This document shows, piece after piece, positions 17,211 through 54,153 of a DNA stretch of 64,000 nt. The DNA is taken from NCBI RefSeq assembly GCF_055900595.2, contig NZ_CM148325.1. One strand, written 5' to 3'. The translations under genes and the position numbers were made by a program. Numbering within the stretch: position 1 is the stretch's first letter; each line of letters starts with the position of its first letter. The notes beneath the pieces are model-generated. The model ran no database searches. It had not been told where the DNA came from and saw only the letters and a list, made by a program, of their open reading frames with translations.

Positions 17211-18615
<1,405 letters not shown>

Positions 18616-25266: not shown

Positions 25267-26013
25267 ATGTTAAAAAAGATACTTTTACTGGCTCTGCTTC
25301 CTACAATCGCCTTTGCAGAGGAACTTCCTGCTCCGGTAAAAGCGATTGAAAAACAGGGCATTAAGATCATCAAAACGTTCGATGCCCCCGGCGGAATGAA
25401 AGGTTATCTCGGCAAGTATCAGGATATGGGCGTCACCATCTACCTGACTCCAGATGGTAAGCACGCTATCTCTGGTTACATGTACAACGAGAAAGGTGAA
25501 AACCTGAGTAACATGCTTATCGAAAAAGAAATTTATGCGCCAGCCGGACGCGAAATGTGGCAACGGATGGAACAATCGCACTGGCTCCTCGACGGTAAAA
25601 AAGACGCGCCAGTCATAGTCTACGTTTTCGCCGATCCGTTCTGCCCATATTGTAAACAGTTCTGGCAGCAGGCGCGCCCGTGGGTTGATTCTGGCAAAGT
25701 ACAGTTGAGAACATTGTTGGTTGGGGTTATCAAACCAGAAAGTCCGGCGACAGCCGCGGCAATTCTGGCCTCTAAAGATCCCGCAAAAACCTGGCAAGAA
25801 TATGAAGCCTCTGGCGGCAAACTTAAGCTAAATGTGCCTACAAACGTAAGTGCAGAGCAAATGAAAGTGTTAAGCGACAACGAGAAACTCATGGACGATC
25901 TGGGGGCAAATGTCACACCGGCTATCTATTACATGAGTAAGGAAAATACGCTGCAACAGGCCGTGGGGTTGCCCGATCAGAAAACGCTTAATATCATCAT
26001 GAGAAATAAATAG
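25267..26013 (+). CDS. dsbG: Periplasmic thiol:disulfide interchange protein DsbG
   Basis: ORF trimmed to [17 protein letters not shown]... (248 aa); thioredoxin CPYC active site. Confidence 0.93.
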
Positions 26014-26220
26014 AAGGTAATTCATGGGTGGTTGAAATACATTCTTGCTTTTCAACCATTCTAAAAACGCATGAATTGCTTCTTCCCCTCCTGACAACTG
26101 TGTTACTTTAGAAAAACTTAATCCAGAGTTAAGTAATAAAACATAACAAATATAAATAAAACAGTAGAATCATTGATTACAAGAATGATTTATGGAAAAG
26201 ATAATATAACGGAGTATGTT

Positions 26221-27123: not shown

Positions 27124-27269
27124 TTTATTACCACGGATAAATGTTATATTACGCATCAATTGATTCATTGTGTGAATATAAAATAATGTGCTCTATCTTG
27201 CTTCGTTTACCCTATAATTAGCGGATTCATCTCACAAGTCACCCAGTAACGTTCAGAGAGCGTTTTCAG

Positions 27270-28490
27270 ATGTCTATTTATAAAATCCCTCTTCCGCTGA
27301 ATATTTTAGAAGCTGCACAGGAACGTATTACCTGGACACTTAACACATTGCCCCGTGTTTGCGTTTCTTTTTCGAGGGGTAAAGATTCCGGATTAATGCT
27401 GCATCTTACCGCCGAACTTGCCAGAAAATTGGGAAAAAAAATCTGCGTTTTGTTTATCGACTGGGAAGCACAGTTCTCTTGTACCATCGACTATGTACAG
27501 TCGTTACGCGAGTTGTATACCGACGTTATTGAAGAGTTTTACTGGGTAGCACTCCCACTCAAGACGCAAAATTCCCTTTCACAATACCAACCAGAATGGC
27601 AGTGCTGGGAATCTGATGTCGAATGGGTGCGTCAGCCCCCGCAAGAAGCGATAACCGATCCTGACTTTTTCTCCTTTTACCAGCCAGGCATGACCTTCGA
27701 ACAATTTGTACGTGAGTTTGCCGAATGGTTTTCACAAAAACGTCCGGCGGCGATGATGATCGGCATCCGTGCGGATGAGTCCTACAACCGTTTTGTCGCC
27801 ATCGCCAGTTTAAGTAAACAACGTTTTGCCGATGATAAGCCCTGGACCACAGCCGCACCAGGCGGTCACAGCTGGTACATTTACCCCATCTACGACTGGA
27901 AAGTAGCTGATATCTGGACCTGGTATGCTAATCATAAATCCCTATGTAACCCATTGTATAATATCATGTATCAGGCAGGCGTTCCCCTGCGTCATATGCG
28001 AATTTGCGAACCTTTTGGCCCGGAGCAACGGCAAGGATTATGGCTCTATCACGTTATCGAACCGGATCGCTGGGCTGCTATGTGCGCACGAGTTAGCGGG
28101 GTAAAAAGTGGCGGCATTTACGCCGGACATGACAATCATTTTTATGGTCATCGGAAAATCCTCAAACCAGAGCATTTAGACTGGCAAGAGTATGCATTAT
28201 TGCTGCTTGATAGCATGCCGGAGAAAACGGCTGAGCATTACCGCAACAAAATTGCCATTTACTTGCATTGGTATCAGAAAAAAGGTGTCGAGGTGCCACA
28301 GACCCAGCACGGGGACATTGGCGCGAAAGATATCCCCTCCTGGCGGCGAATTTGCAAGGTGTTACTGAATAACGATTACTGGTGTCGGGCATTATCATTT
28401 AGCCCAACCAAAGCGAAGAATTATCAGCGTTATAACGAACGGATAAAAGTAAAACGTCAGGAGTGGGGAATACTATGCAACAACAATTAA
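27270..28490 (+). CDS. ybdN: PAPS-reductase-like / PP-loop ATP-pyrophosphatase superfamily protein YbdN (function unknown)
   Basis: 406-aa ORF; N-terminal PP-loop-like motif VSFSRGKDSG; recognised as YbdN. Confidence 0.88.
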   Translation: MSIYKIPLPLNILEAAQERITWTLNTLPRVCVSFSRGKDSGLMLHLTAELARKLGKKICVLFIDWEAQFSCTIDYVQSLRELYTDVIEEFYWVALPLKTQNSLSQYQPEWQCWESDVEWVRQPPQEAITDPDFFSFYQPGMTFEQFVREFAEWFSQKRPAAMMIGIRADESYNRFVAIASLSKQRFADDKPWTTAAPGGHSWYIYPIYDWKVADIWTWYANHKSLCNPLYNIMYQAGVPLRHMRICEPFGPEQRQGLWLYHVIEPDRWAAMCARVSGVKSGGIYAGHDNHFYGHRKILKPEHLDWQEYALLLLDSMPEKTAEHYRNKIAIYLHWYQKKGVEVPQTQHGDIGAKDIPSWRRICKVLLNNDYWCRALSFSPTKAKNYQRYNERIKVKRQEWGILCNNN

Positions 28491-34084: not shown

Positions 34085-35246
<1,162 letters not shown>

Positions 35247-35247
<1 letters not shown>

Positions 35248-36104
35248 CATTTCACCTCGCGGGAGAGTAGCTTCCACCAGGCATCGATGGTCGGATTTTT
35301 CGCCAGCATGACAAAATCGATATCGCCATGCACTTTGCGCCAGCGCGCCGCCAGCGCCATCATGCGCACCGAATCCAGACCGTAATCAATTAGGTTGTCG
35401 TCATCGAACGGCTCATCGGACTCGTCCAGCAACGGCAAGATCACCTCACGCAGCGCCGATTTGCTGGCGGGGATAGGTACTGGCAGCAATTCTTCGGTCA
35501 TCACCACCCGGCCAGAACGTCCGGCCACATATTTCAGCGACATCAAATGCTCGTCACGGCTGAAATCGGCCAGCGCATCTGCCACCATAAACGGTTTAAT
35601 ATCGCGCATAAATGCGTCGGTTGCGGTGGTCATACAGCCAATGTGGGCGTACACCCCGGTTATAATCAGTTGGTTACGTCCACTCTCTTTGAGCATTTGT
35701 TCCAGCGGAGAACGATGAAACGCGCTGTAGCGCCACTTCACCAACACCGTGTCGTCGGCATCTGGCGTCAGGCGATCCACCACCTTTTGCTGTTCCGGTG
35801 AACGGGTCAGGCCCGGCCCCCACATATCATTCAACAGCGCCCGATCTTCATCGCTCTGCTCTTTCGGCTGGGCGGTGTAATAAACCGGGATATTGTGCTG
35901 TTTGCAGTAGTCGCGTAGTGCCGCAATATTCGCGATCACCTGCTCCATCATCGGGCAGTTCTCGCCCCAGAAGCTAACAAAATAGTCCTGCATATCATGG
36001 ATTAACAACGCGGCACGTTGCGGCTCAAAGGCCCAGTTGACTTTATTGTGCGGAATATCGTGAGACTCCGGCAGTGCGTAAGCCTGTAATTTTGGAATAG
36101 CCAT
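35247..36104 (-). CDS. entB: Isochorismatase / aryl carrier protein
   Basis: 285-aa ORF MAIPKLQAYALPESHDIP...; C-terminal ArCP with LGLDSV phosphopantetheine site. Confidence 0.95.
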
Positions 36105-36117: not shown

Positions 36118-37728
36118 TCAGGCTGATGCGCGTGACGCCAGCCACTGACGTAATTGTTTTTTATCGACTTTCCCGACCGCCGTCAGCGGAAGTGAATCTA
36201 CACACTCCACGCGATCCGGTAATTTAAATTCGGCAATACCCTGTTCACGCAGGAAACGACGCACCTGTACCGCACGCAGTGGTTCTTTTACCACCAGATA
36301 AGCACAGCTTTTTTCGCCCATCAGCTCATCTTCCATGCTCACCAGTGCGGCGTAGATCACTGCCGGATGGCGCAGTAACAGGTTTTCGATCTCTTCGGCA
36401 GCGATCTTCTCGCCGCCACGGTTGATCTGATCTTTCTCGCGCCCCTGCACGGTGATGTACCCCTCTGGATCAATAGAGATCAGATCGCCGGAACAGTAAA
36501 AACCGTTGGCATCAAAGGCGCTGGCATTGTGCTGTGGACTTTTGTAATAGCCGCGGAAGGTGTACGGCCCGCGCGTCATCAGGCGTCCAACCTCCCCTTG
36601 CGGCAGTGGATTTCCGTCAGCATCGGCAACCCACACTTCATCATCCGGACACATTGGATAGCCCTGGGTATGGATAATTTTTTCCGCGCTATCATCAAGA
36701 CGGGTGTAGTTCACCAGCCCTTCCGCCATGCCGAATACCTGCTGTAACTGGCAGCCAATCTCTGCGGGAATACGCGCCGCAAGCGTGGCAGAAAGACGTG
36801 CGCCACCGACCTGTAACAGTTTCAGCGAGGCAAGCTGCGCCCGGCTTTCGCCTTCAGCCAGTGCCTGCAACCACAGGCTGACTGCTGGCGGCACCAGCGC
36901 GGTGACGTTCACCTGATGTTTTTCAATCAATGGGAAACAAAGCGTGGCGCTGGGGTCGGCAGCCAGAACGACAGTGCCGCCAGCGAGAAATACCCCCAAC
37001 GATCCCGGCGAACTCATGGCGTAGTTATGAGCCGCCGGGATCGCGCACAGGTAGCGCGTTTGTTGCGTGAACTGACAAATCTCGACGCTACGACGCACGC
37101 TGTAGTAGTAGTCGTTATGAGTGCGCGGGATCAGTTTCGGTGTGCCGGTGGTGCCGCCGGAAAGCTGGAAATAGGCCACTTCATCGGCAGGTGACGGTGT
37201 GGCAGTAAAATCCTCTGCCGGATGGTTAATCGCATCCTGCAAGTTATGCTCACCGCTGTCGTTCAGCAGCTGCACCACGCGAATGGAGGAGTGCTCTGCA
37301 ACAAATGTATTGAGGAAATCATCCCCGCTAAACAGCGCATGTTGGCGATCGGCAATCAGTAACACCGGTTTAATCTGGCTGGCGTATGCGTTCATTTCAC
37401 TACGCTGATGACTGAACAGCGCCAGTACCGGTGCAACGCCCAGTTTTAACAGCGCAAAAAAGGTAATATACAATTCAGCGACGTTACCCAGTTGTACCAG
37501 TGCGGTTTCACCGGGTTTAATGCCCTGACGACGCAAGCTACAGGCGAGATTATCCGCCGCCTGATTCAGTTCCCGGTAACTCAACTGACGCTCGCCGTCG
37601 ATGACCGCGATGCTGTCGCTTGCGGCATGACGGGTCAGAATGTCGGTCAGCGGCAAATCCTGCCAGTAGCCTTTTTCCCGATAGCGACGGGCAAACTCTT
37701 CCGGCCAGCGGGTGAATGGAATGCTCAT
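36118..37728 (-). CDS. entE: 2,3-dihydroxybenzoate-AMP ligase
   Basis: 536-aa adenylation enzyme (SGGTTGTPK motif). Confidence 0.95.
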
Positions 37729-37737: not shown

Positions 37738-38913
<1,176 letters not shown>

Positions 38914-38927
38914 ATCATCCTCCACAA

Positions 38928-38962
38928 AATGATAAAGGCTTTAATAATGATTATCATTTATA
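38928..38962. promoter_or_regulatory. Fur box in the divergent entC / fepB promoter region
   Basis: aaTAATGATtATCATTtaT closely matches the Fur consensus GATAATGATAATCATTATC. Confidence 0.8.
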
Positions 38963-39101
38963 TTTTCGGTCGCTAACCTAAAAGCAAACGAGCACTATGT
39001 CAACTCTTGAGGTAATGCAATCTGCAAGTCGGGGTTGCATCTGCTTGTGGTTACAATGAAAATGAGAAGCATTAACTTCATTAATAACAGGAAGCTGATT
39101 T

Positions 39102-40058
39102 GTGAGACTCGCCCCGCTCTACCGCAACGCCCTTCTTTTAACTGGAATTTTGCTTTCAGGAATATCCGCAGTTCAGGCTGCCGACTGGCCGCGTCAGATT
39201 ACTGACAGTCGTGGTACTCATACCCTGGAAAGCCAGCCGCAACGTATTGTTTCCACCAGCGTCACCCTGACCGGCTCACTGCTGGCGATTGATGCACCAG
39301 TGATCGCCAGCGGCGCGACCACGCCGAATAACCGCGTAGCGGATGACCAGGGTTTTTTACGCCAGTGGAGTAAGGTAGCGAAAGAACGCAAACTGCAACG
39401 TCTCTATATCGGCGAACCGAACGCCGAAGCAGTAGCGGCACAAATGCCAGATCTGATTTTAATTAGCGCGACCGGCGGCGATTCAGCGCTGGCGCTATAC
39501 GATCAGCTTTCCACTATCGCACCAACGTTAATCATCAATTACGACGATAAAAGCTGGCAGTCGCTGTTAACGCAACTTGGCGAAATTACCGGGCATGAGA
39601 AACAAGCGGCAGAGCGGATTGCACAGTTTGATAAGCAACTGGTGGCGGCGAAAGAGGAAATCAAATTACCGCCGCAGCCGGTCACTGCCATTGTCTATAC
39701 CGCCGCTGCACACAGTGCCAATCTCTGGACGCCTGAATCAGCACAAGGCCAGATGCTGGAACAACTCGGCTTTACGCTGGCCAGGTTGCCCGCAGGCTTA
39801 AACGCCAGCCAAAGCCAGGGCAAACGCCATGACATCATTCAGCTTGGTGGGGAAAATCTGGCGGCAGGGTTAAATGGCGAGTCGCTATTCCTGTTCGCCG
39901 GTGATCAGAAAGACGCCGATGCGATTTATGCCAATCCACTGCTCGCGCACCTGCCTGCAGTACAAAACAAGCAGGTTTATGCGCTGGGAACCGAGACGTT
40001 CCGACTGGATTACTACAGCGCCATGCAAGTGCTGGATCGGCTTAAGGCGCTGTTCTAA
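39102..40058 (+). CDS. fepB: Ferric enterobactin periplasmic binding protein
   Basis: 318-aa ORF with GTG start and signal peptide; matches FepB. Confidence 0.93.
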
Positions 40059-40061
40059 GCA

Positions 40062-41312
40062 TTAACTGTCAGACGCTGTCACCTGCGGCGGCGTCTGGCG
40101 AAAACGACGCAACTCTACCAGTACCAGCAACAACAACACGCCGATAATCAACAAACCAAAACCACTCGCGCTTGCGGAGGCCACCGGCGTCATCATCGCT
40201 CCCAGACCGCCCAACAGCGCTGCGCCTATAGCATCGCCCGTCACGTTTTGTGCCGTCCACAAACCGTTAATCCGCCCTAACATCGCTTCCGGGGTTTGCG
40301 TTTGCAGCATTGTGTATTGCAGCAACGAACTAACCGCGCTCAACCAGCCGAACAGCGCCAGACAAACCACGCCTAAAATCCACATCGGCATCAGGCCAAA
40401 CAAACCAATGGCGAGGAACGATCCCAGCGTGGAGAGCAGCATCAATAACCCTGGTCGCGCACTATGTGCCAGCTTCCCGCTGGTTAACGCGCCAATAGCT
40501 GCACCGAGCGGGATCGCCGCATAGAGAAAACCAATCTGTGCCGCCGACATCTGCCAGTTGTCAGCCAGCGCCGGATACAGTACCCGTACCGCGCTCGCCA
40601 TCGTCAATAAACCCCCCAGCAGCGCAATCCCTCCCACCAGCGGGCTGGCAAGCAGAAAACGAAATCCTGCCAGTAATGATTTCAACGGATGCTCACGCGG
40701 TTGCGGTGGCGGAGGTAGCGCCGGAAGGCTTAACAACGGTAGCAAGGTAATAAACGTGCCCGCCGCCGCCAGCCCGTAGTTCCAGGCTACGCCGCCAGTC
40801 GCCAGCAGTAAGCCGCCAATCATGGGCGAAATTACCGATCCCAGCCGCACGGTCAACATGGTGATTGCCCCGGCCTGCATTAAATTTTCACGCCCAACTA
40901 ATGCCGGAGTCGCCGCCAGAAGCGCCGTAACGCCAAGTGACGCGAAAAAGCCATCCCATAATCCGAGTAAATAGATTGCCAGCAAAGACGGCTCCGGCAG
41001 CAACGCGTTCAGGCACAGACCAATGAAGCCAATGCCACAGGTGCCGCGCGCCAGCAAAATCACTTTTTTGCGCTCATAGCGATCCGCCAGCACACCGCCG
41101 ACCATCAAGCCGACAAACATCGCCCCGCCGGTCAGCGTCACCGAAAGACCCACCTGCCAGGTAGAATGCGTCATCATCTGGATCTGCACTGGCACCGCGA
41201 CGCCGAGCAAACCCAGAGAAACAATAGAGATAAAACGAGCGAGGAATACTGCGCGAAACGCCGGGTGCGTTTTCAACAGGCTGAGGTTAAGCAGCCAGGA
41301 TTGTTTATTCAT
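40062..41312 (-). CDS. entS: Enterobactin exporter (MFS)
   Basis: 416-aa MFS membrane ORF matching EntS/YbdA. Confidence 0.93.
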
Positions 41313-41379
41313 TACAATGCCTTGCCATCAAATATTTTAAATACCTATTCTTAGGCTGCACATGCTAACATATCCAAAT

Positions 41380-41410
41380 AAGATCGATAACGATAATTAA
41401 TTTCATTATC
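41380..41410. promoter_or_regulatory. Fur box(es) in the divergent entS / fepD promoter region
   Basis: gataacgataattaatttcattatc contains overlapping GATAAT-type Fur hexamers directly before fepD. Confidence 0.75.
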
Positions 41411-41422
41411 ATGGAAGTTCGT

Positions 41423-42427
41423 ATGTCTGGTTCTGTTGCCGTGACACGCGCCATTGCCGTGCCCGGATTGCTGTTATTACTGATTATCGCGACGGCATTA
41501 AGCCTGCTCATTGGAGCAAAATCACTCCCCGCTTCCGTAGTGCTGGAGGCCCTCTCCGGCACCTGCCAGAGCGCCGACTGCACCATCGTGCTCGACGCGC
41601 GACTGCCGCGTACCCTTGCCGGTTTACTGGCAGGCGGCGCGCTTGGCCTTGCCGGGGCGTTAATGCAAACCCTCACCCGAAACCCACTTGCCGACCCCGG
41701 CTTGCTTGGCGTGAACGCCGGGGCCAGCTTTGCCATTGTGCTGGGCGCGGCGCTGTTTGGTTACTCATCCGCGCAGGAACAACTGGCGATGGCCTTCGCC
41801 GGGGCGCTGGTGGCCTCGTTGATTGTTGCCTTTACTGGCAGCCAGGGCGGTGGGCAGTTAAGTCCGGTGCGTTTAACTCTGGCGGGCGTGGCGCTGGCGG
41901 CAGTGCTGGAAGGGCTGACCAGCGGCATCGCCCTGCTTAATCCCGACGTCTACGATCAACTGCGTTTCTGGCAAGCCGGTTCGCTGGATATTCGTAATTT
42001 ACACACCTTAAAAGTGGTGCTGATCCCTGTGCTGATCGCCGGAGCAACTGCGCTATTACTGAGCCGCGCACTGAACAGTTTAAGCCTCGGCAGTGACACC
42101 GCGACGGCGCTGGGCAGTCGCGTAGCACGCACGCAGTTGATTGGGCTGCTGGCGATTACCGTGCTTTGTGGTAGTGCGACGGCGGTAGTTGGCCCGATTG
42201 CCTTTATTGGCCTGATGATGCCGCATATGGCGCGCTGGCTGGTAGGTGCCGATCATCGCTGGTCGCTGCCCGTCACGCTGCTTGCCACACCTGCCCTGCT
42301 GCTGTTTGCCGATATTATCGGGCGGGTGATTGTTCCCGGCGAACTGCGCGTTTCTGTAGTCAGTGCCTTTATTGGCGCACCAGTGCTGATCTTCCTTGTA
42401 CGACGTAAAACGCGAGGTGGCGCATGA
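41423..42427 (+). CDS. fepD: Ferric enterobactin ABC transporter permease
   Basis: Start taken at MSGSVAVTRAIAVPGLL... (334 aa); the ORF allows a start 4 codons upstream at 41411. Confidence 0.9.
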   Translation: MSGSVAVTRAIAVPGLLLLLIIATALSLLIGAKSLPASVVLEALSGTCQSADCTIVLDARLPRTLAGLLAGGALGLAGALMQTLTRNPLADPGLLGVNAGASFAIVLGAALFGYSSAQEQLAMAFAGALVASLIVAFTGSQGGGQLSPVRLTLAGVALAAVLEGLTSGIALLNPDVYDQLRFWQAGSLDIRNLHTLKVVLIPVLIAGATALLLSRALNSLSLGSDTATALGSRVARTQLIGLLAITVLCGSATAVVGPIAFIGLMMPHMARWLVGADHRWSLPVTLLATPALLLFADIIGRVIVPGELRVSVVSAFIGAPVLIFLVRRKTRGGA

Positions 42428-43416
42428 TTTACGTCTCTCGTCGATTAATTATCACCTGTCTGCTGTTGCTAATAGCTTGTGTGATGGCAAGCGTGTGGGG
42501 ATTACGCAGCGGTGCCGTCACGCTGGAAACCTCTCAGGTATTTGCCGCGCTGATGGGTGACGCACCGCGCAGTATGACAATGGTGGTCACCGAATGGCGT
42601 TTACCGCGGGTACTAATGGCACTGTTGATTGGTGCGGCACTGGGCGTCAGCGGCGCGATTTTTCAGTCGTTGATGCGTAACCCACTCGGCAGCCCTGACG
42701 TAATGGGCTTTAACACCGGAGCGTGGAGCGGCGTGCTGGTGGCGATGGTGCTGTTTGGTCAGGACCTGACGGCTATCGCGCTGGCAGCAATGGCGGGCGG
42801 CATTATCACTTCGCTGCTGGTCTGGCTGCTTGCCTGGCGTAACGGTATCGACACCTTTCGGTTGATTATTATCGGCATCGGTGTTCGCGCCATGCTGGTG
42901 GCCTTTAATACCTGGCTGTTGCTGAAAGCGTCATTAGAAACGGCGCTAACAGCGGGTTTGTGGAATGCCGGATCGCTCAATGGCCTGACGTGGGCAAAAA
43001 CCTCGCCCTCCGCGCCCATCATTATATTGATGCTAATTGCCGCCGCCTTGCTGGTAAGGCGGATGCGCTTGCTGGAGATGGGCGATGACACCGCGTGTGC
43101 GTTAGGCGTCAGCGTCGAACGTTCGCGGCTGTTAATGATGCTGGTCGCCGTAGTACTTACCGCAGCTGCCACTGCCCTGGCGGGGCCGATTTCCTTTATT
43201 GCTTTAGTTGCGCCACACATTGCCCGCCGCATCAGCGGCACCGCTCGCTGGGGTCTAACCCAGGCAGCGCTGTGCGGTGCGCTGTTACTGCTGGCAGCCG
43301 ATCTCTGTGCTCAACAACTGTTTATGCCGTATCAACTTCCGGTTGGCGTCGTTACCGTCAGCCTCGGCGGTATTTACCTTATCGTCTTGTTAATTCAGGA
43401 GTCTCGCAAAAAATGA
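42424..43416 (+). CDS. fepG: Ferric enterobactin ABC transporter permease
   Basis: 330-aa ORF MIYVSRRL...; start overlaps the fepD stop. Confidence 0.93.
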   Translation: MIYVSRRLIITCLLLLIACVMASVWGLRSGAVTLETSQVFAALMGDAPRSMTMVVTEWRLPRVLMALLIGAALGVSGAIFQSLMRNPLGSPDVMGFNTGAWSGVLVAMVLFGQDLTAIALAAMAGGIITSLLVWLLAWRNGIDTFRLIIIGIGVRAMLVAFNTWLLLKASLETALTAGLWNAGSLNGLTWAKTSPSAPIIILMLIAAALLVRRMRLLEMGDDTACALGVSVERSRLLMMLVAVVLTAAATALAGPISFIALVAPHIARRISGTARWGLTQAALCGALLLLAADLCAQQLFMPYQLPVGVVTVSLGGIYLIVLLIQESRKK

Positions 43417-44228
43417 CCGAATCAGTAGCCCGTTTGCGTGGCGAACAGTTAACCCTAGGATATGGCAAATATACCGTTGCGGAAAATCTGACTGTAGAAA
43501 TTCCTGATGGTCACTTCACGGCAATTATCGGGCCAAATGGCTGCGGTAAATCCACGTTGCTGCGTACCTTAAGCCGCCTGATGACGCCTGCTCACGGGCA
43601 TGTCTGGCTGGATGGCGAGCACATTCAACATTACGCCAGTAAAGAGGTCGCACGCCGGATTGGTTTACTGGCGCAAAACGCCACCACGCCGGGAGATATC
43701 ACCGTGCAGGAGCTGGTGGCGCGTGGGCGATACCCGCATCAACCGCTGTTTACCCGCTGGCGCAAAGAAGATGAAGAAGCGGTAACGAAAGCGATGCAGG
43801 CCACGGGAATAACTCATCTGGCAGATCAAAGCGTGGATACCCTTTCTGGCGGACAACGCCAGCGAGCGTGGATCGCGATGGTGCTGGCCCAGGAAACGGC
43901 AATTATGCTACTCGACGAACCCACCACCTGGCTGGATATCAGTCATCAGATTGATTTGCTGGAATTGTTAAGCGAACTGAACCGCGAGAAAGGCTATACC
44001 CTGGCGGCGGTACTGCACGATCTTAATCAGGCCTGTCGGTACGCTAGCCATTTGATTGCATTACGTGAAGGGAAAATTGTCGCTCAAGGAGCACCAAAAG
44101 AGATAGTCACTGCTGAACTGATTGAGCGTATTTATGGTTTGCGTTGCATGATCATTGACGATCCGGTAGCCGGAACTCCGCTTGTGGTGCCGCTCGGACG
44201 AACGGCACCTTCAACCGCGAAGATTTAA
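43413..44228 (+). CDS. fepC: Ferric enterobactin ABC transporter ATP-binding protein
   Basis: Trimmed from a 377-aa ORF to MTESVARLRGEQLTLGY... (271 aa); Walker A GPNGCGKST, signature LSGGQRQR; start overlaps the fepG stop (ATGA). Confidence 0.94.
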   Translation: MTESVARLRGEQLTLGYGKYTVAENLTVEIPDGHFTAIIGPNGCGKSTLLRTLSRLMTPAHGHVWLDGEHIQHYASKEVARRIGLLAQNATTPGDITVQELVARGRYPHQPLFTRWRKEDEEAVTKAMQATGITHLADQSVDTLSGGQRQRAWIAMVLAQETAIMLLDEPTTWLDISHQIDLLELLSELNREKGYTLAAVLHDLNQACRYASHLIALREGKIVAQGAPKEIVTAELIERIYGLRCMIIDDPVAGTPLVVPLGRTAPSTAKI

Positions 44229-45358
44229 ACTAAGTGGTCTGCCATCATGGCATCCTGTTTTCTGGATGCCATGGCATGGCGCAACAGCACGCTACCACAA
44301 GCCACCATACCGCCGATCAACGCAGAAAGGATCACGATAATCGCCTTACCCGGCCCGTCTTTTTTCACTGGCAATGACGGGCTTAACTGATATTTAAACG
44401 GCGTAAAATTCACATCGTTGATATTTGCTTTTGTTAGCTGCTCAACAAGATACTGACGATTACGTAATTCACCGTTCAGTTCCGCAACGTCAGTAACCGC
44501 TTTTTCAATTTCCAGTTTGCGTTCAATACCGTCTGCGCCGAGAGAAATAGAGAAATCGGGGTCATCTTTAACGGCCTGACCATTACTGTAAACGGGCTTT
44601 TTAATTCCTGCCGCGTTGGCAATGTCGAGTGAATAATTGAGGCGCTGAATGTTTGCATCAAGTTGATTTTTCGTTTTAATGCGATCCTGAGCCAGTTTTT
44701 CTTTTTCAAACTGGGTTTTGATCTCCAGTTTATTACGGACGTTTTCTATCGACTCTTTCACCACCAATGCAGAGATATAATCGATATACCCGCTCAAAAC
44801 GGTCTGCGCCTCTTCACTGGTTGGCGCGGTAAAACTTAGCGTCCAGGAGGCATACAGTGACGGTTCATCTTTTTTCTTACTGGCATTGTCATCAACCGCT
44901 TTCATTTTTTCGCTCAATGCGACGATAGCGCGATGCAAATCCAGTTCGTCGATTTTCGCCTCTTTTAATTGGTCCATCACATAAGGTGATGAGCGCAGGT
45001 ACTCTTCCAGTAAGCTAACAGACTGAAACTTCTTGATAAACAGGTTAAATGCTTCTGTACGATCAATTTTGATATCCAGATCCAGCACACGAAGCTTAGT
45101 GAATGTTTTCTCAAGCGCCTGCCACTGAACAGGTTCTGGAGGCGTGACAACCGCCGCGCTGGTCCATTTTTGCGGCAGGATGAAAGAGATCAGTAAACCT
45201 GCGCAGACAAACGCAAAAACGACCGCCATGACCGTTTTTTTGGCCCGCCATAAAACTTCAATTAGATTAAGTAAATCAATTTCATTATTACTGGGCGACG
45301 CCAGAGGATACTCGGGAAAATGAGCGTCACTTCCCTGTTTAATATTCAGTGATGACAT
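44225..45358 (-). CDS. fepE: Polysaccharide co-polymerase (Wzz-family O-antigen chain-length regulator) FepE
   Basis: 377-aa ORF with N- and C-terminal TM segments; 3' end overlaps the fepC 3' end by 4 nt (convergent). Confidence 0.92.
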   Translation of the reverse strand: MSSLNIKQGSDAHFPEYPLASPSNNEIDLLNLIEVLWRAKKTVMAVVFAFVCAGLLISFILPQKWTSAAVVTPPEPVQWQALEKTFTKLRVLDLDIKIDRTEAFNLFIKKFQSVSLLEEYLRSSPYVMDQLKEAKIDELDLHRAIVALSEKMKAVDDNASKKKDEPSLYASWTLSFTAPTSEEAQTVLSGYIDYISALVVKESIENVRNKLEIKTQFEKEKLAQDRIKTKNQLDANIQRLNYSLDIANAAGIKKPVYSNGQAVKDDPDFSISLGADGIERKLEIEKAVTDVAELNGELRNRQYLVEQLTKANINDVNFTPFKYQLSPSLPVKKDGPGKAIIVILSALIGGMVACGSVLLRHAMASRKQDAMMADHLV

Positions 45359-45573
45359 GGGGTATAACCTGAAAATGAGTCCAATAGGGGGAAATCTCCA
45401 CGGCGCTCACTTTACCAGTTGGTGAGAATTATCCGAAGCTGAAGTTTGTAAATTCCTCCCACTGAATGCAACATTCACTCTATTTCAGAGAAATATCCGT
45501 TAAATTGATAAATTAAATAAATAATAAACCCATAATCATTTATTGTAATTATGGGTTTATAGATAATATAAAT

Positions 45574-48500
45574 TTACTTATTTAGCGTCGCACGAATAAT
45601 TGGCCCTATTTTTTCAAACGCCATCGGCGAGATAATATCCACATGCGCGCAATCATGACGATAGATATCCAGCTCCGCAATCCATGGTGCCCAGGCCCGT
45701 TCGGGAGTCATCCCCTCCTGAAGCGTGCGTTCGGCAACAAACAGCGTCGCTTTTCCATCAAACGGAACACTATGGGCAGTGGTCAACAAGCGCACTGCAT
45801 CAGCGTAGTTGCCTTCAATGGTGGTAAACAGCTCCGTTGAAGTATTTCCCTGCTGTGCCGCCAAGAAAGCTTCACGTTCGCGGTTAATCTCCGCCAACAC
45901 TTCCGGGTCCAGACCATTAGCTTCTTTTTCCTGCCAGTTCTGCGTTTCTGGCGGCCAGGTATCCAGCAAGCCAAGAAATGCCACCTGTTCGCCACGGGCA
46001 CGCAGCCGTGCCGCAATCCCCTGCGCCAGCGTACCGCCCAGCGAATACCCCAGCAGGTAATAAGGGCCGTGCGGTTGTTGTTCAAGTAACGTTGCCAGAT
46101 GTGCTTCGCAGACTTCATCCAGGTTTGCCGCCGTCTGCATGGGGCCATGAGGGCGCGGAGACTGGATGCCAATAATCGACCATTGAGGATCGAGATAACG
46201 CGAGAGCACGCTAAACTGCCAGGCAAAACCAGATGCTGGATGGAAACAAAACAGCGTCGGGCCATTACCTTCACGCAACGGCAGGATGGTTTCAAATCCC
46301 ATGCGCTGGGTGCTGTCTTCTTCACCATCAATAACCGTTGCCAGTTTGGCGACGGTTGACGCGACCATCACCTGCCCCGGCGTCACCTGACGGGCAAACT
46401 GTCGACTAAGTTGTGCTGCCAGTTTCATTGCCAGTAGCGAATGACCGCCAAGCGCGAAGAAATCAGCGTCAGCATCCTGCACGTCACAACCCAGCAATGA
46501 CGAGAACGCCGTGGCGATAATCGTTTCACTGCCCGCTTTCGGCGCACGCCCCGACGCTTGTGCCTTCAGTTCCGGCAACGGTAAGGCTTTGCGATCCAGC
46601 TTACCGTTGGCGCTAAGTGGTAACTGCGGCAGTTGCAGCAGAACCACGGGCACCATATGCGGTGGCAATTTTTCGCGAAGCTGCGCCTGCAATGCGCTGG
46701 TATCCAGCGGCAGGCCCGATTGCGACACCAGATAGCCCACCAGTTGACGCGCATCCCCCCCGGTGGCTGCCGCCTGATTAATCACACAAGCGTGGGTAAC
46801 TGCTTGCTCGACATCCGGCAGAGCCTGCATCACGCGATCGATTTCGCCCAGTTCAATCCGCTGACCACGAATTTTTAGCTGATCATCACTACGCCCGAGA
46901 TACTCCACCGCGCCGTTATCCAGCCAGCGGGCAACATCTCCGGTACGGTACATGCGTTCACCTGGCGCGAAAGGATCGGCAATAAAGCGGCTGGCTGTCA
47001 GATCGGGTCGTCCAAGATACCCCTGCGCCAGTTGAATACCGGTGAGATAGAGATCGCCTGCCACACCCGGCGGCACCGGATGCATCATCGCATCGAGAAT
47101 GCGCAGGCCCGTGTTCCACACCGGGTAGCCAATCGGCACACTGCTGCCGCGTACCGCTGCAAGTTCAGCACCAAAGGCTGGATACCAGCTCACATCCACC
47201 GCCGCTTCCGTCGGGCCATAAAGATTATGTAACGGCGCGCCAGTTAACTGCTGCCATTCGCGACATAAATCGGCTGGTAAGGCTTCTCCACTACAGAAAA
47301 CCTGTTTCAACGTCGCGCAACTCTGGCGAGCGGTTTCCGGCGTCAACGAAGCAACAAACGCCGCCAGCATCGACGGTACAAAATGCGTGGTCGTTACGCC
47401 ATATTCAGCAAAGAATTGCTGCATAGCGAACGGATCGCGGTGCGCTTCCGGTTCAGCCATCACCAGTTTCGCCCCTGCAATAAACGGCCAGAAAAACTCC
47501 CACACCGAGACATCAAAACTGCACGGCGTTTTTTGGGCAACAACATCTTCGCCTGTGAGCGGGTAGTGGTTTTGCATCCATAACAGGCGGTTAACGATAG
47601 CCGTCTGCCCGACCATCACCCCTTTCGGCCTGCCGGTGGAACCGGAGGTAAAGATGATATAAGCCGTGTGGTGCGGTTGTGAAAGTTGCAGCGGCGCACT
47701 GCCCTGCGGTGTAAGCGGGGCGTTATAGCAAAGACTGGTTAAATTGGGGATATCGCTAAAGCGCGGCAGTTGATCATCGGTGGTGATTAACAGTGACGGA
47801 CGCGCATCTTCCAGCATCATTTTCAGGCGATCGTCCGGATAGCCCGTATCCAGCGGTAGCCAGGCCGCACCTGCTTCAACTATCGCATGTAGCGCCATAG
47901 TCAAAAAGACCGAGCGCGGTAGTGCCACCGCTACGCTGTCGCCAGGTTTAACGCCGCGCTCACGCAGCAGATTCGCCAGCGCCACCACCTGCTCGCGCAT
48001 TTCCCGATAACTGAACTGGTAACGCACATCTGCCAGTGCCGGAGCATCCGGCGTTTTTGCCGCCTGTTCTGCCACCAGCGCGCTCAGTGTGGTTTCTGGA
48101 ATCTCAACCTGAGTGGCGTTGATCTGCGCCAGCTGTGCATACTCTTCTGGCAGCAGAATATCGACATCGCCGCACAACCGCGCCGGATCCGCGGCAAACT
48201 GCGCCGTCAGCATTTTCAGCCGTTCAGCATGCTTGATTAACGTTGGCTCATCGTAACGCTGTTTATTGGCGAGGATCTCAATACTCAAATCACCGTTTTC
48301 ATCCGGGAAAAGGGCCAGTTCAAGGTCATTAACCGGACCGGTTGCCAGGGTATGGGTTTGCGCCTGTACCCCCGGAATATCTAACTGATAATCAAATACT
48401 TTAATATTGAGCACCGGACCGAACAGCGGTTCCTCTCCCGCCGCGCGCCCGCTGTCACGGACAATTTGTTCGGCATCGTAACGTTGATGACGACGCATTT

Positions 48501-49455
48501 TTTTCAGTTGTGCCGCTAGTCGTGCTGCCAGTTGCGGCAATGTTTCTTGTGCCTCAATGTGAATACCCAACGGCAACACGTTGAGCACGGGTCCGGTAGC
48601 CGTCAGCGCCGCTGAGCCCAGTCGACGCATAAAGATAAATCCGGCGGCGTAGTCCATGCGGCTGCACAATCGCCCCAGCCACAAAGCCGCCAGCGCAAGG
48701 GCTATATCGGTACGTTGTACACCTGAAAGTTGCGTAGCCAACTGGCGGAATTCCCCGCCGTTAAATTCCAGTTTCAGACGCAAAATATCTGCCGAGGCGC
48801 TGCGCCCCGGTAAAGGGGCTGGAGAAAGTGACGCGGGCGGTGGTAGTTGACGACGCTGTTCCGCCCAGAATGCCGCATCACGCTGCCAGGCTTCGCTTTC
48901 GCGGTACTGCTGGTACTCTTCCACGACATCAGCGAAAGGCGTAAACGGCGAAGCAGGCGTTGGTTCGCCACACCCCCATGCACAGTAAATGTTGGCGATC
49001 TGGCGGGTAATGACCGGGAAACTGAAGCCATCGACCAGCAAATGGTGGTAACGCTGATACCAGTACCAGCGGTTATCTGCCACCTGTATCAGTTGATGAA
49101 AAACCAGAGGTTTACCGCTATCGACGCGCAGATCTTGTTGCAAATCCGCCTGCATTAATGCCTGCGCAGTACCGTGCGGATCAATGTTGGTTCGCAGGTC
49201 GATAATTTCTGGCAGTTCGAACGTCAGCGCATCATCGACCCATTGCCAGACTTCGCCGTTATCTTCCGTAAAACGCATCCGCAGCGTATCTGCTTGCGCT
49301 AATCCGGCAACCACCGCGCGAGCCAGTAATGGCGCATCAACATCTCCGGTTAACTCAACGTAATGCGCCACGCTCCAGGCGGAGGGTAAATCCGACAGTT
49401 TTTCTGCCATCCAGATGCCGGGCTGTGCGGCAACTAAAGGTAAATGCTGGCTCAT
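45574..49455 (-). CDS. entF: Enterobactin synthase component F (NRPS: C-A-PCP-TE, serine-activating)
   Basis: Trimmed from a 1339-aa ORF to MSQHLPLVAAQPGIWMAEKL... (1293 aa); NRPS motifs HHLLVDG, SGSTGRPKG, LGGHSLLA, thioesterase GYSLGG. Confidence 0.95.
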   Translation of the reverse strand: MSQHLPLVAAQPGIWMAEKLSDLPSAWSVAHYVELTGDVDAPLLARAVVAGLAQADTLRMRFTEDNGEVWQWVDDALTFELPEIIDLRTNIDPHGTAQALMQADLQQDLRVDSGKPLVFHQLIQVADNRWYWYQRYHHLLVDGFSFPVITRQIANIYCAWGCGEPTPASPFTPFADVVEEYQQYRESEAWQRDAAFWAEQRRQLPPPASLSPAPLPGRSASADILRLKLEFNGGEFRQLATQLSGVQRTDIALALAALWLGRLCSRMDYAAGFIFMRRLGSAALTATGPVLNVLPLGIHIEAQETLPQLAARLAAQLKKMRRHQRYDAEQIVRDSGRAAGEEPLFGPVLNIKVFDYQLDIPGVQAQTHTLATGPVNDLELALFPDENGDLSIEILANKQRYDEPTLIKHAERLKMLTAQFAADPARLCGDVDILLPEEYAQLAQINATQVEIPETTLSALVAEQAAKTPDAPALADVRYQFSYREMREQVVALANLLRERGVKPGDSVAVALPRSVFLTMALHAIVEAGAAWLPLDTGYPDDRLKMMLEDARPSLLITTDDQLPRFSDIPNLTSLCYNAPLTPQGSAPLQLSQPHHTAYIIFTSGSTGRPKGVMVGQTAIVNRLLWMQNHYPLTGEDVVAQKTPCSFDVSVWEFFWPFIAGAKLVMAEPEAHRDPFAMQQFFAEYGVTTTHFVPSMLAAFVASLTPETARQSCATLKQVFCSGEALPADLCREWQQLTGAPLHNLYGPTEAAVDVSWYPAFGAELAAVRGSSVPIGYPVWNTGLRILDAMMHPVPPGVAGDLYLTGIQLAQGYLGRPDLTASRFIADPFAPGERMYRTGDVARWLDNGAVEYLGRSDDQLKIRGQRIELGEIDRVMQALPDVEQAVTHACVINQAAATGGDARQLVGYLVSQSGLPLDTSALQAQLREKLPPHMVPVVLLQLPQLPLSANGKLDRKALPLPELKAQASGRAPKAGSETIIATAFSSLLGCDVQDADADFFALGGHSLLAMKLAAQLSRQFARQVTPGQVMVASTVAKLATVIDGEEDSTQRMGFETILPLREGNGPTLFCFHPASGFAWQFSVLSRYLDPQWSIIGIQSPRPHGPMQTAANLDEVCEAHLATLLEQQPHGPYYLLGYSLGGTLAQGIAARLRARGEQVAFLGLLDTWPPETQNWQEKEANGLDPEVLAEINREREAFLAAQQGNTSTELFTTIEGNYADAVRLLTTAHSVPFDGKATLFVAERTLQEGMTPERAWAPWIAELDIYRHDCAHVDIISPMAFEKIGPIIRATLNK

Positions 49456-49670
49456 TGCGCCTCCTGCTGCTGGATGAAATTCGCCGGTGTCAGAGTACGC
49501 CAGTGGGCGTCCAGCCACTGCTGGCAGGACGCCTGTGACTGCGGCTGACACACAACATCCCAGCCTGCCGGTAAGGCGCACTGTTGCGGCCACAGACTGA
49601 ATTGCCCCTGCGCATTGCGTAAAATGTAAAACACGCCCTGCGGATCATCGAAGGGATTACTGAATGCCAT
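49452..49670 (-). CDS. ybdZ: MbtH-like protein (enterobactin biosynthesis accessory)
   Basis: 72-aa MAFSNPFDDPQGVFYILRNAQGQFSLWP...; stop overlaps the entF start (ATGA). Confidence 0.9.
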   Translation of the reverse strand: MAFSNPFDDPQGVFYILRNAQGQFSLWPQQCALPAGWDVVCQPQSQASCQQWLDAHWRTLTPANFIQQQEAQ

Positions 49671-49672
49671 AT

Positions 49673-50875
49673 TCAACTCCTGTCATGGAAAAGTGGTTGC
49701 CAGAGGTCGATTAGCCCCTGCATCAAGCCACCGCGCCAACAAAGCGCATCATGTCCGCCGTCAACCTGACGCCAGAAAATGGATTCTTTTAGGGGGGGTA
49801 ATTGCGCATACAGCGCCTGATTGGCCCGCATAATCATCGGCTCGCGAAGACCCGCTTCCAGCACAATGCGCAGACCTTCGGCGCTAACTTCACCAGCTTT
49901 GAGCTGTTCAAGTAACATGCCCTCTTGCTGACCGCTCCGGTGCGGCCACCAGTACGATCCCGACTGGCTTAATACACAGCCAAAGCGTTCAGGCCAGTGC
50001 AGTCCGGCATACAGCGCGGAAAGCCCACCAAAACTCTGCCCGGCGACCACAGTACGATCGGCGCGATCGCTAAAGGGGGCGATAGTTTTCACCTGGGGTA
50101 ATAACTCTTGCTGTACTGCCAGCCAGAAATCCGCATTACATGGCAGTTCGTGGGCACGTTGCGTGGTGTCGATAGCGTCGATCAACACGTACACGGCGGG
50201 AGGAAGTTGCTGACGATGGGTCAACGAAGTCAGCGCAGGCCAGACGGGCATACTCTGCGCCCAAAATTCGCCATCAAGTAAAACTGCCAGCGGACGTTCT
50301 TCTGCTGTTGCATCGCCGGTGGTAAAAATCCATACACGGCGTGAATTTTTCAACCGTTCACTTTTCCAGATAATTTCTTTGGCAGGCGTTTCTGGCGCTT
50401 GCGGACAATCCCATCCTGGTTGCAGGGGCGCTTGCGGCATTTCGAGTGCAGAAACAGCGTGCCCTCGCCCGCCTTTCCAGCTTTGTGGATTCAGCGGATC
50501 GGCTATCGCCAGGGGTAATAGTTTTCGCCAGCCTTCGCGCAATTCGAGGCGATCAGGTGATGGAGCAGAAAAAATGTCATCACGTTCGGTAGGAATAAAA
50601 CAGTAGCTGCCGCGCCAGTTGGCATTGAGTTGTGTCGTCCACTGCCAGACATCGGTCCCTGCAATTCGCTGCATCGACTGGGGCTGGCTGTTCTGATGGT
50701 GATCGGTCACGCCAGTGATATAGACCCATACGCGCTTTATCGTCGAGTGGTCTTCAGAACCTTGTGGATCACGCCACCAGAAAGTGACCTGATACATTTC
50801 GTCATTCAGACGCTGACATTCCGGGCCATGTTTCGACTGCCACCAGCTCTCACTTCCTACTTTTAACGCCGTCAC
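49673..50875 (-). CDS. fes: Enterochelin (ferric enterobactin) esterase
   Basis: 400-aa ORF from GTG (MTALKVGSESWW...); an alternative ATG 26 codons in would give a 374-aa product; esterase GQSFGG motif. Confidence 0.9.
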   Translation of the reverse strand: MTALKVGSESWWQSKHGPECQRLNDEMYQVTFWWRDPQGSEDHSTIKRVWVYITGVTDHHQNSQPQSMQRIAGTDVWQWTTQLNANWRGSYCFIPTERDDIFSAPSPDRLELREGWRKLLPLAIADPLNPQSWKGGRGHAVSALEMPQAPLQPGWDCPQAPETPAKEIIWKSERLKNSRRVWIFTTGDATAEERPLAVLLDGEFWAQSMPVWPALTSLTHRQQLPPAVYVLIDAIDTTQRAHELPCNADFWLAVQQELLPQVKTIAPFSDRADRTVVAGQSFGGLSALYAGLHWPERFGCVLSQSGSYWWPHRSGQQEGMLLEQLKAGEVSAEGLRIVLEAGLREPMIMRANQALYAQLPPLKESIFWRQVDGGHDALCWRGGLMQGLIDLWQPLFHDRS

Positions 50876-50919
50876 ACCATAACCCCATGTTTACTGTGCA
50901 ATTTTTCATTGATTGCAGA

Positions 50920-50965
50920 AATATATTGATAATATTATTGATAACTATTTGCATTTGCAATAGCG
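50920..50965. promoter_or_regulatory. Fur boxes in the bidirectional fes / fepA promoter region
   Basis: tattgataatattattgataactatttgcatttgcaat contains tandem Fur-type GATAAT repeats. Confidence 0.8.
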
Positions 50966-51117
50966 TAATGGCGCGCCGTGGGAAGCGCGGACATTAATTA
51001 ACCAACTGCACTGCGTGTCTTTCAGGATCAAAGGTTTTCGCGGTAGCGGGATACGTCGTATTGATGACGACTACGCCCGACAGTTGCAATTCGTGGCAAA
51101 AATGCAGGAATAAAACA

Positions 51118-53358
51118 ATGAACAAGAAGATTCATTCCCTGGCCTTGTTGGTCAATCTGGGGATTTATGGGGTAGCGCAGGCACAAGAGCCAACCGATAC
51201 TCCTGTTTCACATGACGATACTATTGTCGTTACCGCCGCCGAGCAGAACTTGCAGGCGCCAGGCGTTTCGACCATCACCGCAGATGAAATCCGCAAAAAC
51301 CCGGTTGCCCGCGATGTATCGGAGATCATTCGTACCATGCCTGGCGTTAACCTGACAGGTAACTCCACTAGTGGTCAGCGTGGTAATAACCGCCAGATTG
51401 ATATTCGCGGCATGGGTCCGGAAAACACGCTGATTTTGATTGACGGTAAGCCTGTCAGCAGCCGTAACTCGGTGCGTCAGGGCTGGCGTGGCGAGCGTGA
51501 TACCCGTGGTGATACCTCCTGGGTGCCGCCTGAAATGATTGAACGTATTGAAGTTCTGCGTGGTCCGGCAGCTGCGCGTTATGGCAACGGCGCGGCGGGC
51601 GGCGTGGTTAACATCATTACCAAAAAAGGCAGCGGCGAGTGGCACGGCTCCTGGGATGCTTATTTCAATGCGCCAGAGCATAAAGAGGAAGGTGCCACCA
51701 AACGCACCAATTTCAGCTTGACCGGTCCGCTGGGCGACCAATTCAGCTTCCGTTTATATGGCAACCTCGACAAAACTCAGGCTGATGCGTGGGATATTAA
51801 CCAGGGCCATCAGTCAGCGCGTGCCGGAACGTATGCCACGACGTTACCAGCCGGGCGCGAAGGGGTGATCAACAAAGATATCAATGGCGTGGTGCGTTGG
51901 GACTTCGCCCCTATGCAATCACTCGAACTTGAAGCGGGCTACAGCCGCCAGGGTAACCTGTATGCGGGTGACACCCAGAACACCAACTCTGACGCTTACA
52001 CTCGCTCTAAATATGGCGATGAAACCAACCGCCTGTATCGCCAGAACTACTCGCTGACCTGGAACGGTGGCTGGGATAACGGCGTGACCACCAGCAATTG
52101 GGTGCAGTACGAACACACCCGTAACTCGCGTATACCGGAAGGTTTGGCGGGCGGCACCGAAGGGAAATTTAACGAAAAAGCGACACAAGATTTCGTCGAT
52201 ATCGATCTTGATGACGTGATGTTGCACAGCGAAGTTAACCTGCCGATTGATTTCCTCGTTAACCAGACGCTGACGCTGGGGACTGAGTGGAATCAGCAGC
52301 GGATGAAGGACTTAAGTTCCAACACCCAGGCGCTGACCGGAACGAATACCGGCGGTGCTATTGATGGTGTAAGTGCCACTGACCGTAGCCCATATTCAAA
52401 GGCAGAAATTTTCTCGCTATTTGCCGAAAACAACATGGAGCTGACTGACAGCACCATCGTAACGCCGGGGCTGCGTTTCGATCATCACAGCATTGTCGGC
52501 AATAACTGGAGTCCGGCGCTGAATATATCGCAAGGTTTAGGCGATGACTTCACGCTGAAAATGGGCATCGCCCGTGCTTATAAAGCGCCGAGCCTGTACC
52601 AGACTAACCCGAACTACATTCTCTACAGTAAAGGTCAGGGCTGCTATGCCAGCGCGGGCGGCTGCTATTTGCAAGGTAATGATGACCTGAAAGCGGAAAC
52701 CAGCATCAACAAAGAGATTGGTCTGGAGTTCAAACGCGACGGCTGGCTGGCGGGCGTCACCTGGTTCCGTAACGATTATCGCAATAAGATTGAAGCGGGC
52801 TATGTGGCTGTAGGGCAAAACGCAGTCGGCACCGATCTCTATCAGTGGGATAACGTGCCGAAAGCGGTGGTTGAAGGTCTGGAAGGATCGTTAAACGTAC
52901 CGGTTAGCGAAACGGTGATGTGGACCAACAACATCACTTATATGCTGAAGAGTGAAAACAAAACCACGGGCGACCGTTTGTCGATCATCCCGGAATATAC
53001 GTTGAACTCAACGCTGAGCTGGCAGGCACGGGAAGATTTGTCGATGCAAACGACCTTCACCTGGTACGGCAAGCAGCAGCCGAAGAAGTACAACTATAAA
53101 GGTCAGCCAGCGGTTGGACCGGAAACCAAAGAAATTAGCCCTTACAGCATTGTTGGCCTGAGCGCGACCTGGGATGTGACGAAGAATGTCAGTCTGACCG
53201 GCGGCGTGGACAACCTGTTCGACAAGCGTTTGTGGCGTGCGGGTAATGCCCAGACCACGGGCGATTTGGCAGGAGCCAACTATATCGCGGGTGCCGGCGC
53301 GTATACCTATAACGAGCCGGGACGTACGTGGTATATGAGCGTAAACACTCACTTCTGA
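51118..53358 (+). CDS. fepA: TonB-dependent ferric enterobactin outer-membrane receptor
   Basis: Trimmed to MNKKIHSLALLVNLGIYGVAQA (signal peptide), 746 aa; TonB box DTIVVTA; terminal aromatic F. Confidence 0.95.
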   Translation: MNKKIHSLALLVNLGIYGVAQAQEPTDTPVSHDDTIVVTAAEQNLQAPGVSTITADEIRKNPVARDVSEIIRTMPGVNLTGNSTSGQRGNNRQIDIRGMGPENTLILIDGKPVSSRNSVRQGWRGERDTRGDTSWVPPEMIERIEVLRGPAAARYGNGAAGGVVNIITKKGSGEWHGSWDAYFNAPEHKEEGATKRTNFSLTGPLGDQFSFRLYGNLDKTQADAWDINQGHQSARAGTYATTLPAGREGVINKDINGVVRWDFAPMQSLELEAGYSRQGNLYAGDTQNTNSDAYTRSKYGDETNRLYRQNYSLTWNGGWDNGVTTSNWVQYEHTRNSRIPEGLAGGTEGKFNEKATQDFVDIDLDDVMLHSEVNLPIDFLVNQTLTLGTEWNQQRMKDLSSNTQALTGTNTGGAIDGVSATDRSPYSKAEIFSLFAENNMELTDSTIVTPGLRFDHHSIVGNNWSPALNISQGLGDDFTLKMGIARAYKAPSLYQTNPNYILYSKGQGCYASAGGCYLQGNDDLKAETSINKEIGLEFKRDGWLAGVTWFRNDYRNKIEAGYVAVGQNAVGTDLYQWDNVPKAVVEGLEGSLNVPVSETVMWTNNITYMLKSENKTTGDRLSIIPEYTLNSTLSWQAREDLSMQTTFTWYGKQQPKKYNYKGQPAVGPETKEISPYSIVGLSATWDVTKNVSLTGGVDNLFDKRLWRAGNAQTTGDLAGANYIAGAGAYTYNEPGRTWYMSVNTHF

Positions 53359-53397
53359 TGCTAACGTCAGATTGTTGACAAAGTGCGCGTCGTTCAT

Positions 53398-53523: not shown

Positions 53524-54153
53524 ATGGTCGACATGAAAACTACGCATACCTCCCTCCCCTTTGCAGGACATACGCTGCATTTTGTTGAGTTCGATCCAGT
53601 GAGTTTTCGCGAGCAGGATTTACTCTGGCTGCCACACTACGCACAACTGCAACACGCTGGACGTAAACGTAAAACAGAGCATTTAGCCGGACGGATCGCT
53701 GCTGTTTACGCCTTGCGGGAATATGGCTATAAATGTGTGCCCGCAATCGGCGAGCTACGCCAACCTGTGTGGCCTGCGGAGGTATACGGCAGTATTAGCC
53801 ACTGCGGGACTACGGCATTAGCCGTGGTATCTCGTCAACCGATTGGCATTGATATCGAAGAGATTTTCTCTGTACAAACCGCAAGAGAATTGACAGACAA
53901 CATTATTACACCAGCAGAACACGAGCGACTCGCAGAATGCGGTTTAACCTTTTCTCTGGCGCTGACACTGGCATTTTCCGCCAAAGAGAGCGCATTTAAG
54001 GCAAGCAAGATACAGGCCGCTCAAGGTTTTCTGGATTATCAGATAATTAGCTGGAATAAACAGCAGATCATCATTCGACTAGAGGATGAGCAGTTTGCTG
54101 TGCACTGGCAGATAAAAGAAAAAATAGTCATAACGCTGTGCCAACACGATTAA
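53524..54153 (+). CDS. entD: 4'-phosphopantetheinyl transferase for EntB/EntF
   Basis: Trimmed to MVDMKTTHTSLPFAGHTLHF... (209 aa); the supplied ORF extends upstream across the REP. Confidence 0.9.
   Translation: MVDMKTTHTSLPFAGHTLHFVEFDPVSFREQDLLWLPHYAQLQHAGRKRKTEHLAGRIAAVYALREYGYKCVPAIGELRQPVWPAEVYGSISHCGTTALAVVSRQPIGIDIEEIFSVQTARELTDNIITPAEHERLAECGLTFSLALTLAFSAKESAFKASKIQAAQGFLDYQIISWNKQQIIIRLEDEQFAVHWQIKEKIVITLCQHD

Follow-up and report, generated by a model that had tools for sequence, protein, structure and literature searches.

A complete canonical enterobactin (ent-fep-fes) cluster with Fur-box-bearing divergent spacers in Escherichia coli

The closest described system is the chromosomal enterobactin cluster of Escherichia coli K-12 MG1655 (b0583-b0597, NC_000913.3 609459-629713). 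The control architecture of the ent and fep genes is described in the literature as three bidirectional operators (PMC4911079). Across nine E. coli strains, these genes are part of the core regulon of Fur, and both Fur occupancy and iron-dependent repression have been shown for K-12 and eight other strains (PMC10164565). In addition, DNase I footprints of Fur have been reported for fepA-fes, fepB, entC and fepD-entS in older K-12 coordinates (Chen et al. 2007, Table 3; PMC2189734). Fur operators of the E. coli iron regulon form overlapping clusters of sites spaced by 6 bp in divergent promoter regions (PMC2189734).

Here, we analyzed a 64-kb stretch of E. coli DNA, referred to below as the window. 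Region 34085-54153 is, with near certainty, the canonical chromosomal E. coli enterobactin cluster in complete form. The same 16 genes are found as in K-12, with the same order, orientation and lengths, and they are collinear with the cluster in PGAP-annotated relatives as well. The genes form the sets entCEBAH, fepB, entS, fepDGC, fepE, fes-ybdZ-entF and fepA-entD (Table 1). The segment 38914-39101 corresponds exactly to the entC/fepB divergent spacer, from the entC ATG (38913, minus strand) to the fepB GTG (39102), and of 5,426 complete E. coli genomes, 5,411 have an ent-fep-fes cluster that matches the 20 kb surrounding this spacer. The enterobactin cluster of this strain is thus an ordinary, textbook one and already known. 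The preliminary description, made from the sequence before any comparison, had regarded the cluster as complete and its architecture as the expected, well-known one. Comparison with the K-12 reference cluster bears out both statements, as all 16 ent/fep genes from entH to entD are intact and gene order, orientation, lengths and junctions agree.

Annotation was transferred to the window, and each gene was compared with its counterpart in K-12 MG1655. All 16 genes begin with a start codon and end in a stop codon, are free of internal stops and have exactly the K-12 length, and global protein alignments to K-12 contain no gaps (90.3-100% identity). Frameshifts and premature stops, which would have contradicted the preliminary description, were sought in all 16 genes by alignment to K-12, and none were found. 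Coding DNA is 92-97% identical to that of K-12. Since dN/dS is 0-0.23 at a dS of 0.10-0.31 across the 16 genes, every gene appears to be under purifying selection. Thirteen products score above the curated NCBIfam equivalog cut-off of their own Ent, Fep or Fes family, and FepA scores above that of an NCBIfam subfamily model. EntB and YbdZ had no NCBIfam match at the E-value limits used (1e-20 and 1e-10); however, EntB passes the Pfam isochorismatase and PP-binding models (PF00857 and PF00550), and YbdZ passes the MbtH model (PF03621). The PGAP annotation of E200086, whose cluster is 100.0% identical (to rounding), likewise lists 16 intact genes and carries no pseudogene flag. Production and uptake of enterobactin by this strain are predicted from these intact genes.

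Table 1. Genes, divergent spacers and predicted Fur operators of the enterobactin region, with positions in the window. Bit scores are followed by the cut-off of the family model.
Feature	Position	Strand	Product, size and comparison
entH	34085..34498	-	Proofreading thioesterase; 137 aa; 100% aa identity to K-12; NF007607 equivalog, 315 bits vs 237
entA	34501..35247	-	248 aa; NF006074, 441 bits vs cut-off 312
entB	35247..36104	-	Isochorismatase / aryl carrier protein; 285 aa; 98.6% aa identity to K-12; PF00857 + PF00550
entE	36118..37728	-	536 aa; NF008192, 1034 bits vs cut-off 783
entC	37738..38913	-	Isochorismate synthase; 391 aa; NF011591, 864 bits vs cut-off 624
entC/fepB divergent spacer	38914..39101	.	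188 bp, short form; first 161 bp 157/161 (97.5%) identical to K-12
entC Fur operator (predicted here)	38919..38967	.	Exact copy of K-12 footprint; core box 38943-38961 ATAAATGATAATCATTATT, minus strand, 15/19
fepB Fur operator (predicted here)	39052..39076	.	Core box 39058-39076 GAAAATGAGAAGCATTAAC, 15/19; 26 bp upstream of fepB GTG
fepB	39102..40058	+	Periplasmic ferric-enterobactin binding protein; 318 aa; GTG start; NF008200, 520 bits vs 205
entS	40062..41312	-	Enterobactin exporter; 416 aa; NF007792, 716 bits vs cut-off 324
entS/fepD divergent spacer	41313..41422	.	110 bp; 110/110 identical to K-12
fepD-entS Fur operator (predicted here)	41373..41441	.	Exact copy of K-12 footprint; boxes 41386-41404 (15/19) and 41392-41410 (16/19)
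fepD	41423..42427	+	334 aa; K-12 alignment, NCBIfam equivalog
fepG	42424..43416	+	330 aa; K-12 alignment, NCBIfam equivalog
fepC	43413..44228	+	271 aa; K-12 alignment, NCBIfam equivalog
fepE / wzz(fepE)	44225..45358	-	377 aa; NF007699, 622 bits vs cut-off 300
entF	45574..49455	-	NRPS; 1293 aa; 96.4% aa identity to K-12, no gaps; NF007605, 2815 bits vs 2400
ybdZ	49452..49670	-	MbtH-like; 72 aa; Pfam PF03621
fes	49673..50875	-	Enterochelin esterase; 400 aa; GTG start; NF007758, 704 bits vs 222
fes/fepA divergent spacer	50876..51117	.	242 bp; 238/242 identical to K-12
fepA-fes Fur operator (predicted here)	50920..50967	.	Exact copy of K-12 footprint; hexamer array TATATTGATAATATTATTGATAAC 50922-50945
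fepA	51118..53358	+	TonB-dependent ferric-enterobactin receptor; 746 aa; NF010048, 1283 bits vs 493
entD	53533..54153	+	Phosphopantetheinyl transferase; 206 aa; 93.2% aa identity to K-12; NF007604, 421 bits vs 169

The gene junctions proved to be as tight as had been described. Checked base by base, entB and entA share the single base 35247 (TGATG). Overlaps of 4 nt (ATGA) join fepD to fepG (42424-42427), fepG to fepC (43413-43416) and ybdZ to entF (49452-49455), while fes and ybdZ are 2 nt apart (49671-49672). Likewise, entA and entH are separated by 2 nt on the same strand, the convergent ends of fepC and fepE overlap by 4 nt, and those of fepB and entS lie 3 nt apart. K-12 MG1655 has the same junction geometry throughout the cluster. 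Judging from established knowledge, such stop/start overlaps (TGATG, ATGA) and 2-nt gaps probably couple the translation of adjacent cistrons within the operons of this strain, and coupling would help to hold the stoichiometry of FepD/G/C, YbdZ/EntF and EntB/EntA.

Fur-like sites were scanned for with the 19-bp consensus GATAATGATAATCATTATC, with scores for arrays of the hexamer GATAAT and with dinucleotide shuffles, in place of an independent Fur position weight matrix. Matches to at least 14 of the 19 consensus positions occur at only five positions in the 64-kb window (whole-window dinucleotide shuffles average 1.0), and four of the five fall in two spacers, entC/fepB (38943 and 39058) and entS/fepD (41386 and 41392). 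The match at 41392-41410 is the only one in the window with no more than three mismatches to the consensus (expected number, 0.00). With the hexamer-array model, the site at 50922-50945 in the fes/fepA spacer ranks first in the window (20/24), followed by the entC and entS/fepD sites. The fes/fepA spacer stands out only under this model, as its best score on the 19-bp consensus is 13/19 (P = 0.09 against spacer shuffles). When each spacer was compared with dinucleotide shuffles of itself, the best 19-mer score of entC/fepB was reached in 0.15% of shuffles (P = 0.0015) and that of entS/fepD in 0 of 2,000. For fes/fepA, 0 of 2,000 shuffles reached the observed score with three hexamers and 1 of 2,000 with four. 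Fur-consensus sequences had been reported from the entC/fepB, entS/fepD and fes/fepA spacers on inspection, and these results confirm them as top-ranked in 64 kb and beyond what spacer shuffles produce. The Fur-like sites overlap in steps of 6 bp (38937/38943/38949 and 41386/41392), and no difference from the clusters described for the E. coli iron regulon was detected.

Fur binding has already been demonstrated, by EMSA or ChIP-exo, for the K-12 sequences that are identical to these. For comparison with the published footprints, their coordinates were shifted by +777 to NC_000913.3, and the shift was verified from the start-codon distances in the strongest-cluster table of the same paper. Three of the four K-12 footprints are present in the window as exact copies. 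The fourth, that of fepB, is identical over the first 23 of its 31 bp (39052-39074), a stretch that holds 17 of the 19 core-box bases; it departs after 23 bp because the last 8 bp of the K-12 footprint belong to an element that is absent from the window. By hand count against the consensus, the K-12 version of the fepB core box scores the same as the one found here. Conservation also extends beyond K-12. The entC/fepB spacer is largely invariant in alignments with E. albertii, E. whittamii and Escherichia sp. MOD1-EC7003, and the 25-bp Fur cluster of the entS/fepD spacer is exact in all three. The same 25-bp cluster is exact in NZ_JAATUR010000029.1, the GTDB representative 'Escherichia coli strain SCPM-O-B-8794'. 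This record is only 86% identical to the window over fepD-fepE, farther than E. albertii, and its label or locus looks unusual.

As the operators are identical to those footprinted in K-12, unchanged repression of both directions by Fe2+-Fur is the best-supported explanation of these spacers. Most genes of the cluster are transcribed outward from the three short, AT-rich divergent spacers, each with putative Fur-binding hexamer arrays that the literature places over the promoters. A sigma-70 scan returned weak promoter matches (9/12 to the consensus) that overlap the Fur boxes, and in the window the position of the boxes relative to promoters rests only on these matches. In the presence of iron, Fe2+-Fur dimers bound to the operators would silence transcription in both directions. 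Under iron scarcity, Fur would dissociate, and synthesis, export, uptake and hydrolysis genes would be expressed together. Fur occupancy and iron repression are thus to be expected in this strain from established knowledge.

Two readings would undermine parts of this account. The Fur-like matches could be a chance product of AT-rich promoter DNA, with the spacers not being Fur operators at all. The spacers are indeed AT-rich (GC, 0.31-0.42), and the 13/19 score of the best fes/fepA 19-mer is attained by 31 strand-specific matches elsewhere in the window. However, shuffled spacers of the same composition rarely or never attain the observed scores, the sequences are identical to operators footprinted with DNase in K-12, and the sites are invariant despite ~5% gene divergence and across Escherichia species. 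A chance origin is therefore extremely improbable. The cluster could also look intact and yet be impaired by missense changes in its more diverged proteins, namely YbdZ, EntD, Fes and EntF, which are 90%, 93%, 95% and 96% identical to K-12, respectively. Apart from fepE (0.16), the genes of these proteins have the highest dN/dS in the cluster (0.07 for entF and 0.16-0.23 for fes, entD and ybdZ). These values are nevertheless still well below 1, protein lengths are unchanged, and all four proteins clear the curated family cut-offs by large margins. Furthermore, at least 15 complete genomes, which come from several hosts, retain the same alleles, and we consider such impairment very unlikely.

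A third reading concerns fepB alone and stems from the one clear departure from K-12 among the spacers. The entC/fepB spacer is 188 bp long, in contrast to 374 bp in K-12, because the K-12 fepB leader carries a repeat element that is absent from this strain. The additional ~186 bp of K-12 (18541-18724 of K-12 locus L003) are placed directly after position 39074 of the window (empty site 39074/39075), between the fepB Fur box and the ribosome-binding site. The element is MITE-like and is bordered on each side by TTA, and its arms of 24 nt and 41 nt form a nested, imperfect palindrome. Its G/C-rich core resembles BoxC/PIT repeats (PMC4666352), which is a likeness and not a formal classification. 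The K-12 spacer, element included, is matched at a median of six places per genome, and the long spacer form occurs in 2,755 of 5,426 (~51%) complete E. coli genomes. E. whittamii has a 100-bp version without the core at the same TTA site, while E. albertii and Escherichia sp. MOD1-EC7003 have an empty site, as in the window. An Rfam scan of 33800-54700 at permissive thresholds gave no match in any of the three divergent spacers, and a full-text literature search returned nothing relevant on the fepB leader. In K-12, where the element forms a long hairpin, the stretch reaching from Fur box into fepB folds at -99.9 kcal/mol (z = -4.0), whereas that of the window folds at -7.6 kcal/mol (z = +1.07), with no structure beyond that of shuffles. 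With half the spacer length, no hairpin element and an unstructured stretch between Fur box and start codon, fepB might be regulated differently here than in K-12, and if so, the leader element could adjust how much FepB is made, or how stable the mRNA is, from one lineage to another. However, both leader forms are common, which suggests near-neutrality, and both keep the Fur box and the ribosome-binding site. Different regulation of fepB is thus rather unlikely, and it would modify Fe2+-Fur repression as the main explanation without replacing it. The three spacers are 97.5-100% identical to K-12 (over the first 161 bp in the case of entC/fepB), compared to 92-97% for the flanking genes, which would fit strong constraint on the whole control regions. 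We give little credence, however, to the combined proposal that the fepB-leader element is a functional regulatory polymorphism and that unusual constraint on whole spacers, and not just on the Fur boxes, underlies the near-invariance of the three operators in a cluster with a dS of about 0.2. Overall, the long and short fepB leaders are a common polymorphism, and the identification of the cluster is unaffected by it.

Several further observations were made in the other spacers and the flanks. The entF/fepE spacer (45359-45573) contains a perfect AT-rich hairpin, AAACCCATAAT...ATTATGGGTTT, at ~45527-45560. Lying immediately downstream of entF, the hairpin resembles a terminator for this gene, and K-12 retains it with a few compensating differences. 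The fepA/entD spacer (53359-53532) carries REP-type palindromes, which are usual for this spacer, and is nearly identical to that of K-12; its Rfam matches are ES036 (53433-53474), which exceeds the gathering score, and naRNA4 (53387-53428), which falls short of it. K-12 has IS186B between entD and hokE, and E200086 has IS421 there, whereas the window has neither IS186 nor IS421 in this interval (54253-55150). The fepB spacer of E200086 is of the short form, as here. The hokE/sokE region gives two alignments in tandem (54253-54643 and from 54755), and an Rfam sok antitoxin match lies near hokE (54419-54573, 84 bits). Positions 26000-28000, which match K-12 citR (ybdO) and ybdN, are only 80-85% identical to K-12, far below their surroundings. 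The drop points to a highly divergent allele or to replacement of this segment.

The cluster is 99.9-100.0% identical at the nucleotide level to those of E200086, 100117, 100248 and Z0117EC0005, all RefSeq complete genomes. Only 15 records are at least 99% identical to it, and nearly all E. coli are 94.5-95.0% identical (about 5.2-5.5% diverged), a pattern noted for 25000-64000 and especially for 34085-54153. In contrast, the ent cluster of K-12 itself is 95-100% identical to almost all records. Over the left flank (1-20000), most genomes are 97.7-98.5% identical to the window, and only 16 are close relatives. Introgression of the locus from another Escherichia species was considered and rejected, as no sampled species is closer to the window than K-12 (94.5-95.3%). 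Identity is 93.3% for MOD1-EC7003, 90-92% for E. whittamii, 90.4% for E. albertii and 86% for the GTDB representative labelled E. coli; this species comparison comprised four representatives with the exact 25-mer, with E. marmotae, E. ruysiae and E. fergusonii outside it. Furthermore, the left flank is likewise about equidistant (~98%) from nearly all E. coli and shares the same 15-16 close relatives. The simpler reading of these identities would be that the strain comes from a rare lineage that branches deeply within E. coli and that its ent locus evolves fast at synonymous sites.

The significance of this locus beyond annotation is small. In this strain of a rare and deep-branching lineage, the enterobactin system has stayed complete, under purifying selection and with unchanged Fur operators, a result that fits the membership of its genes in the conserved core regulon of Fur.
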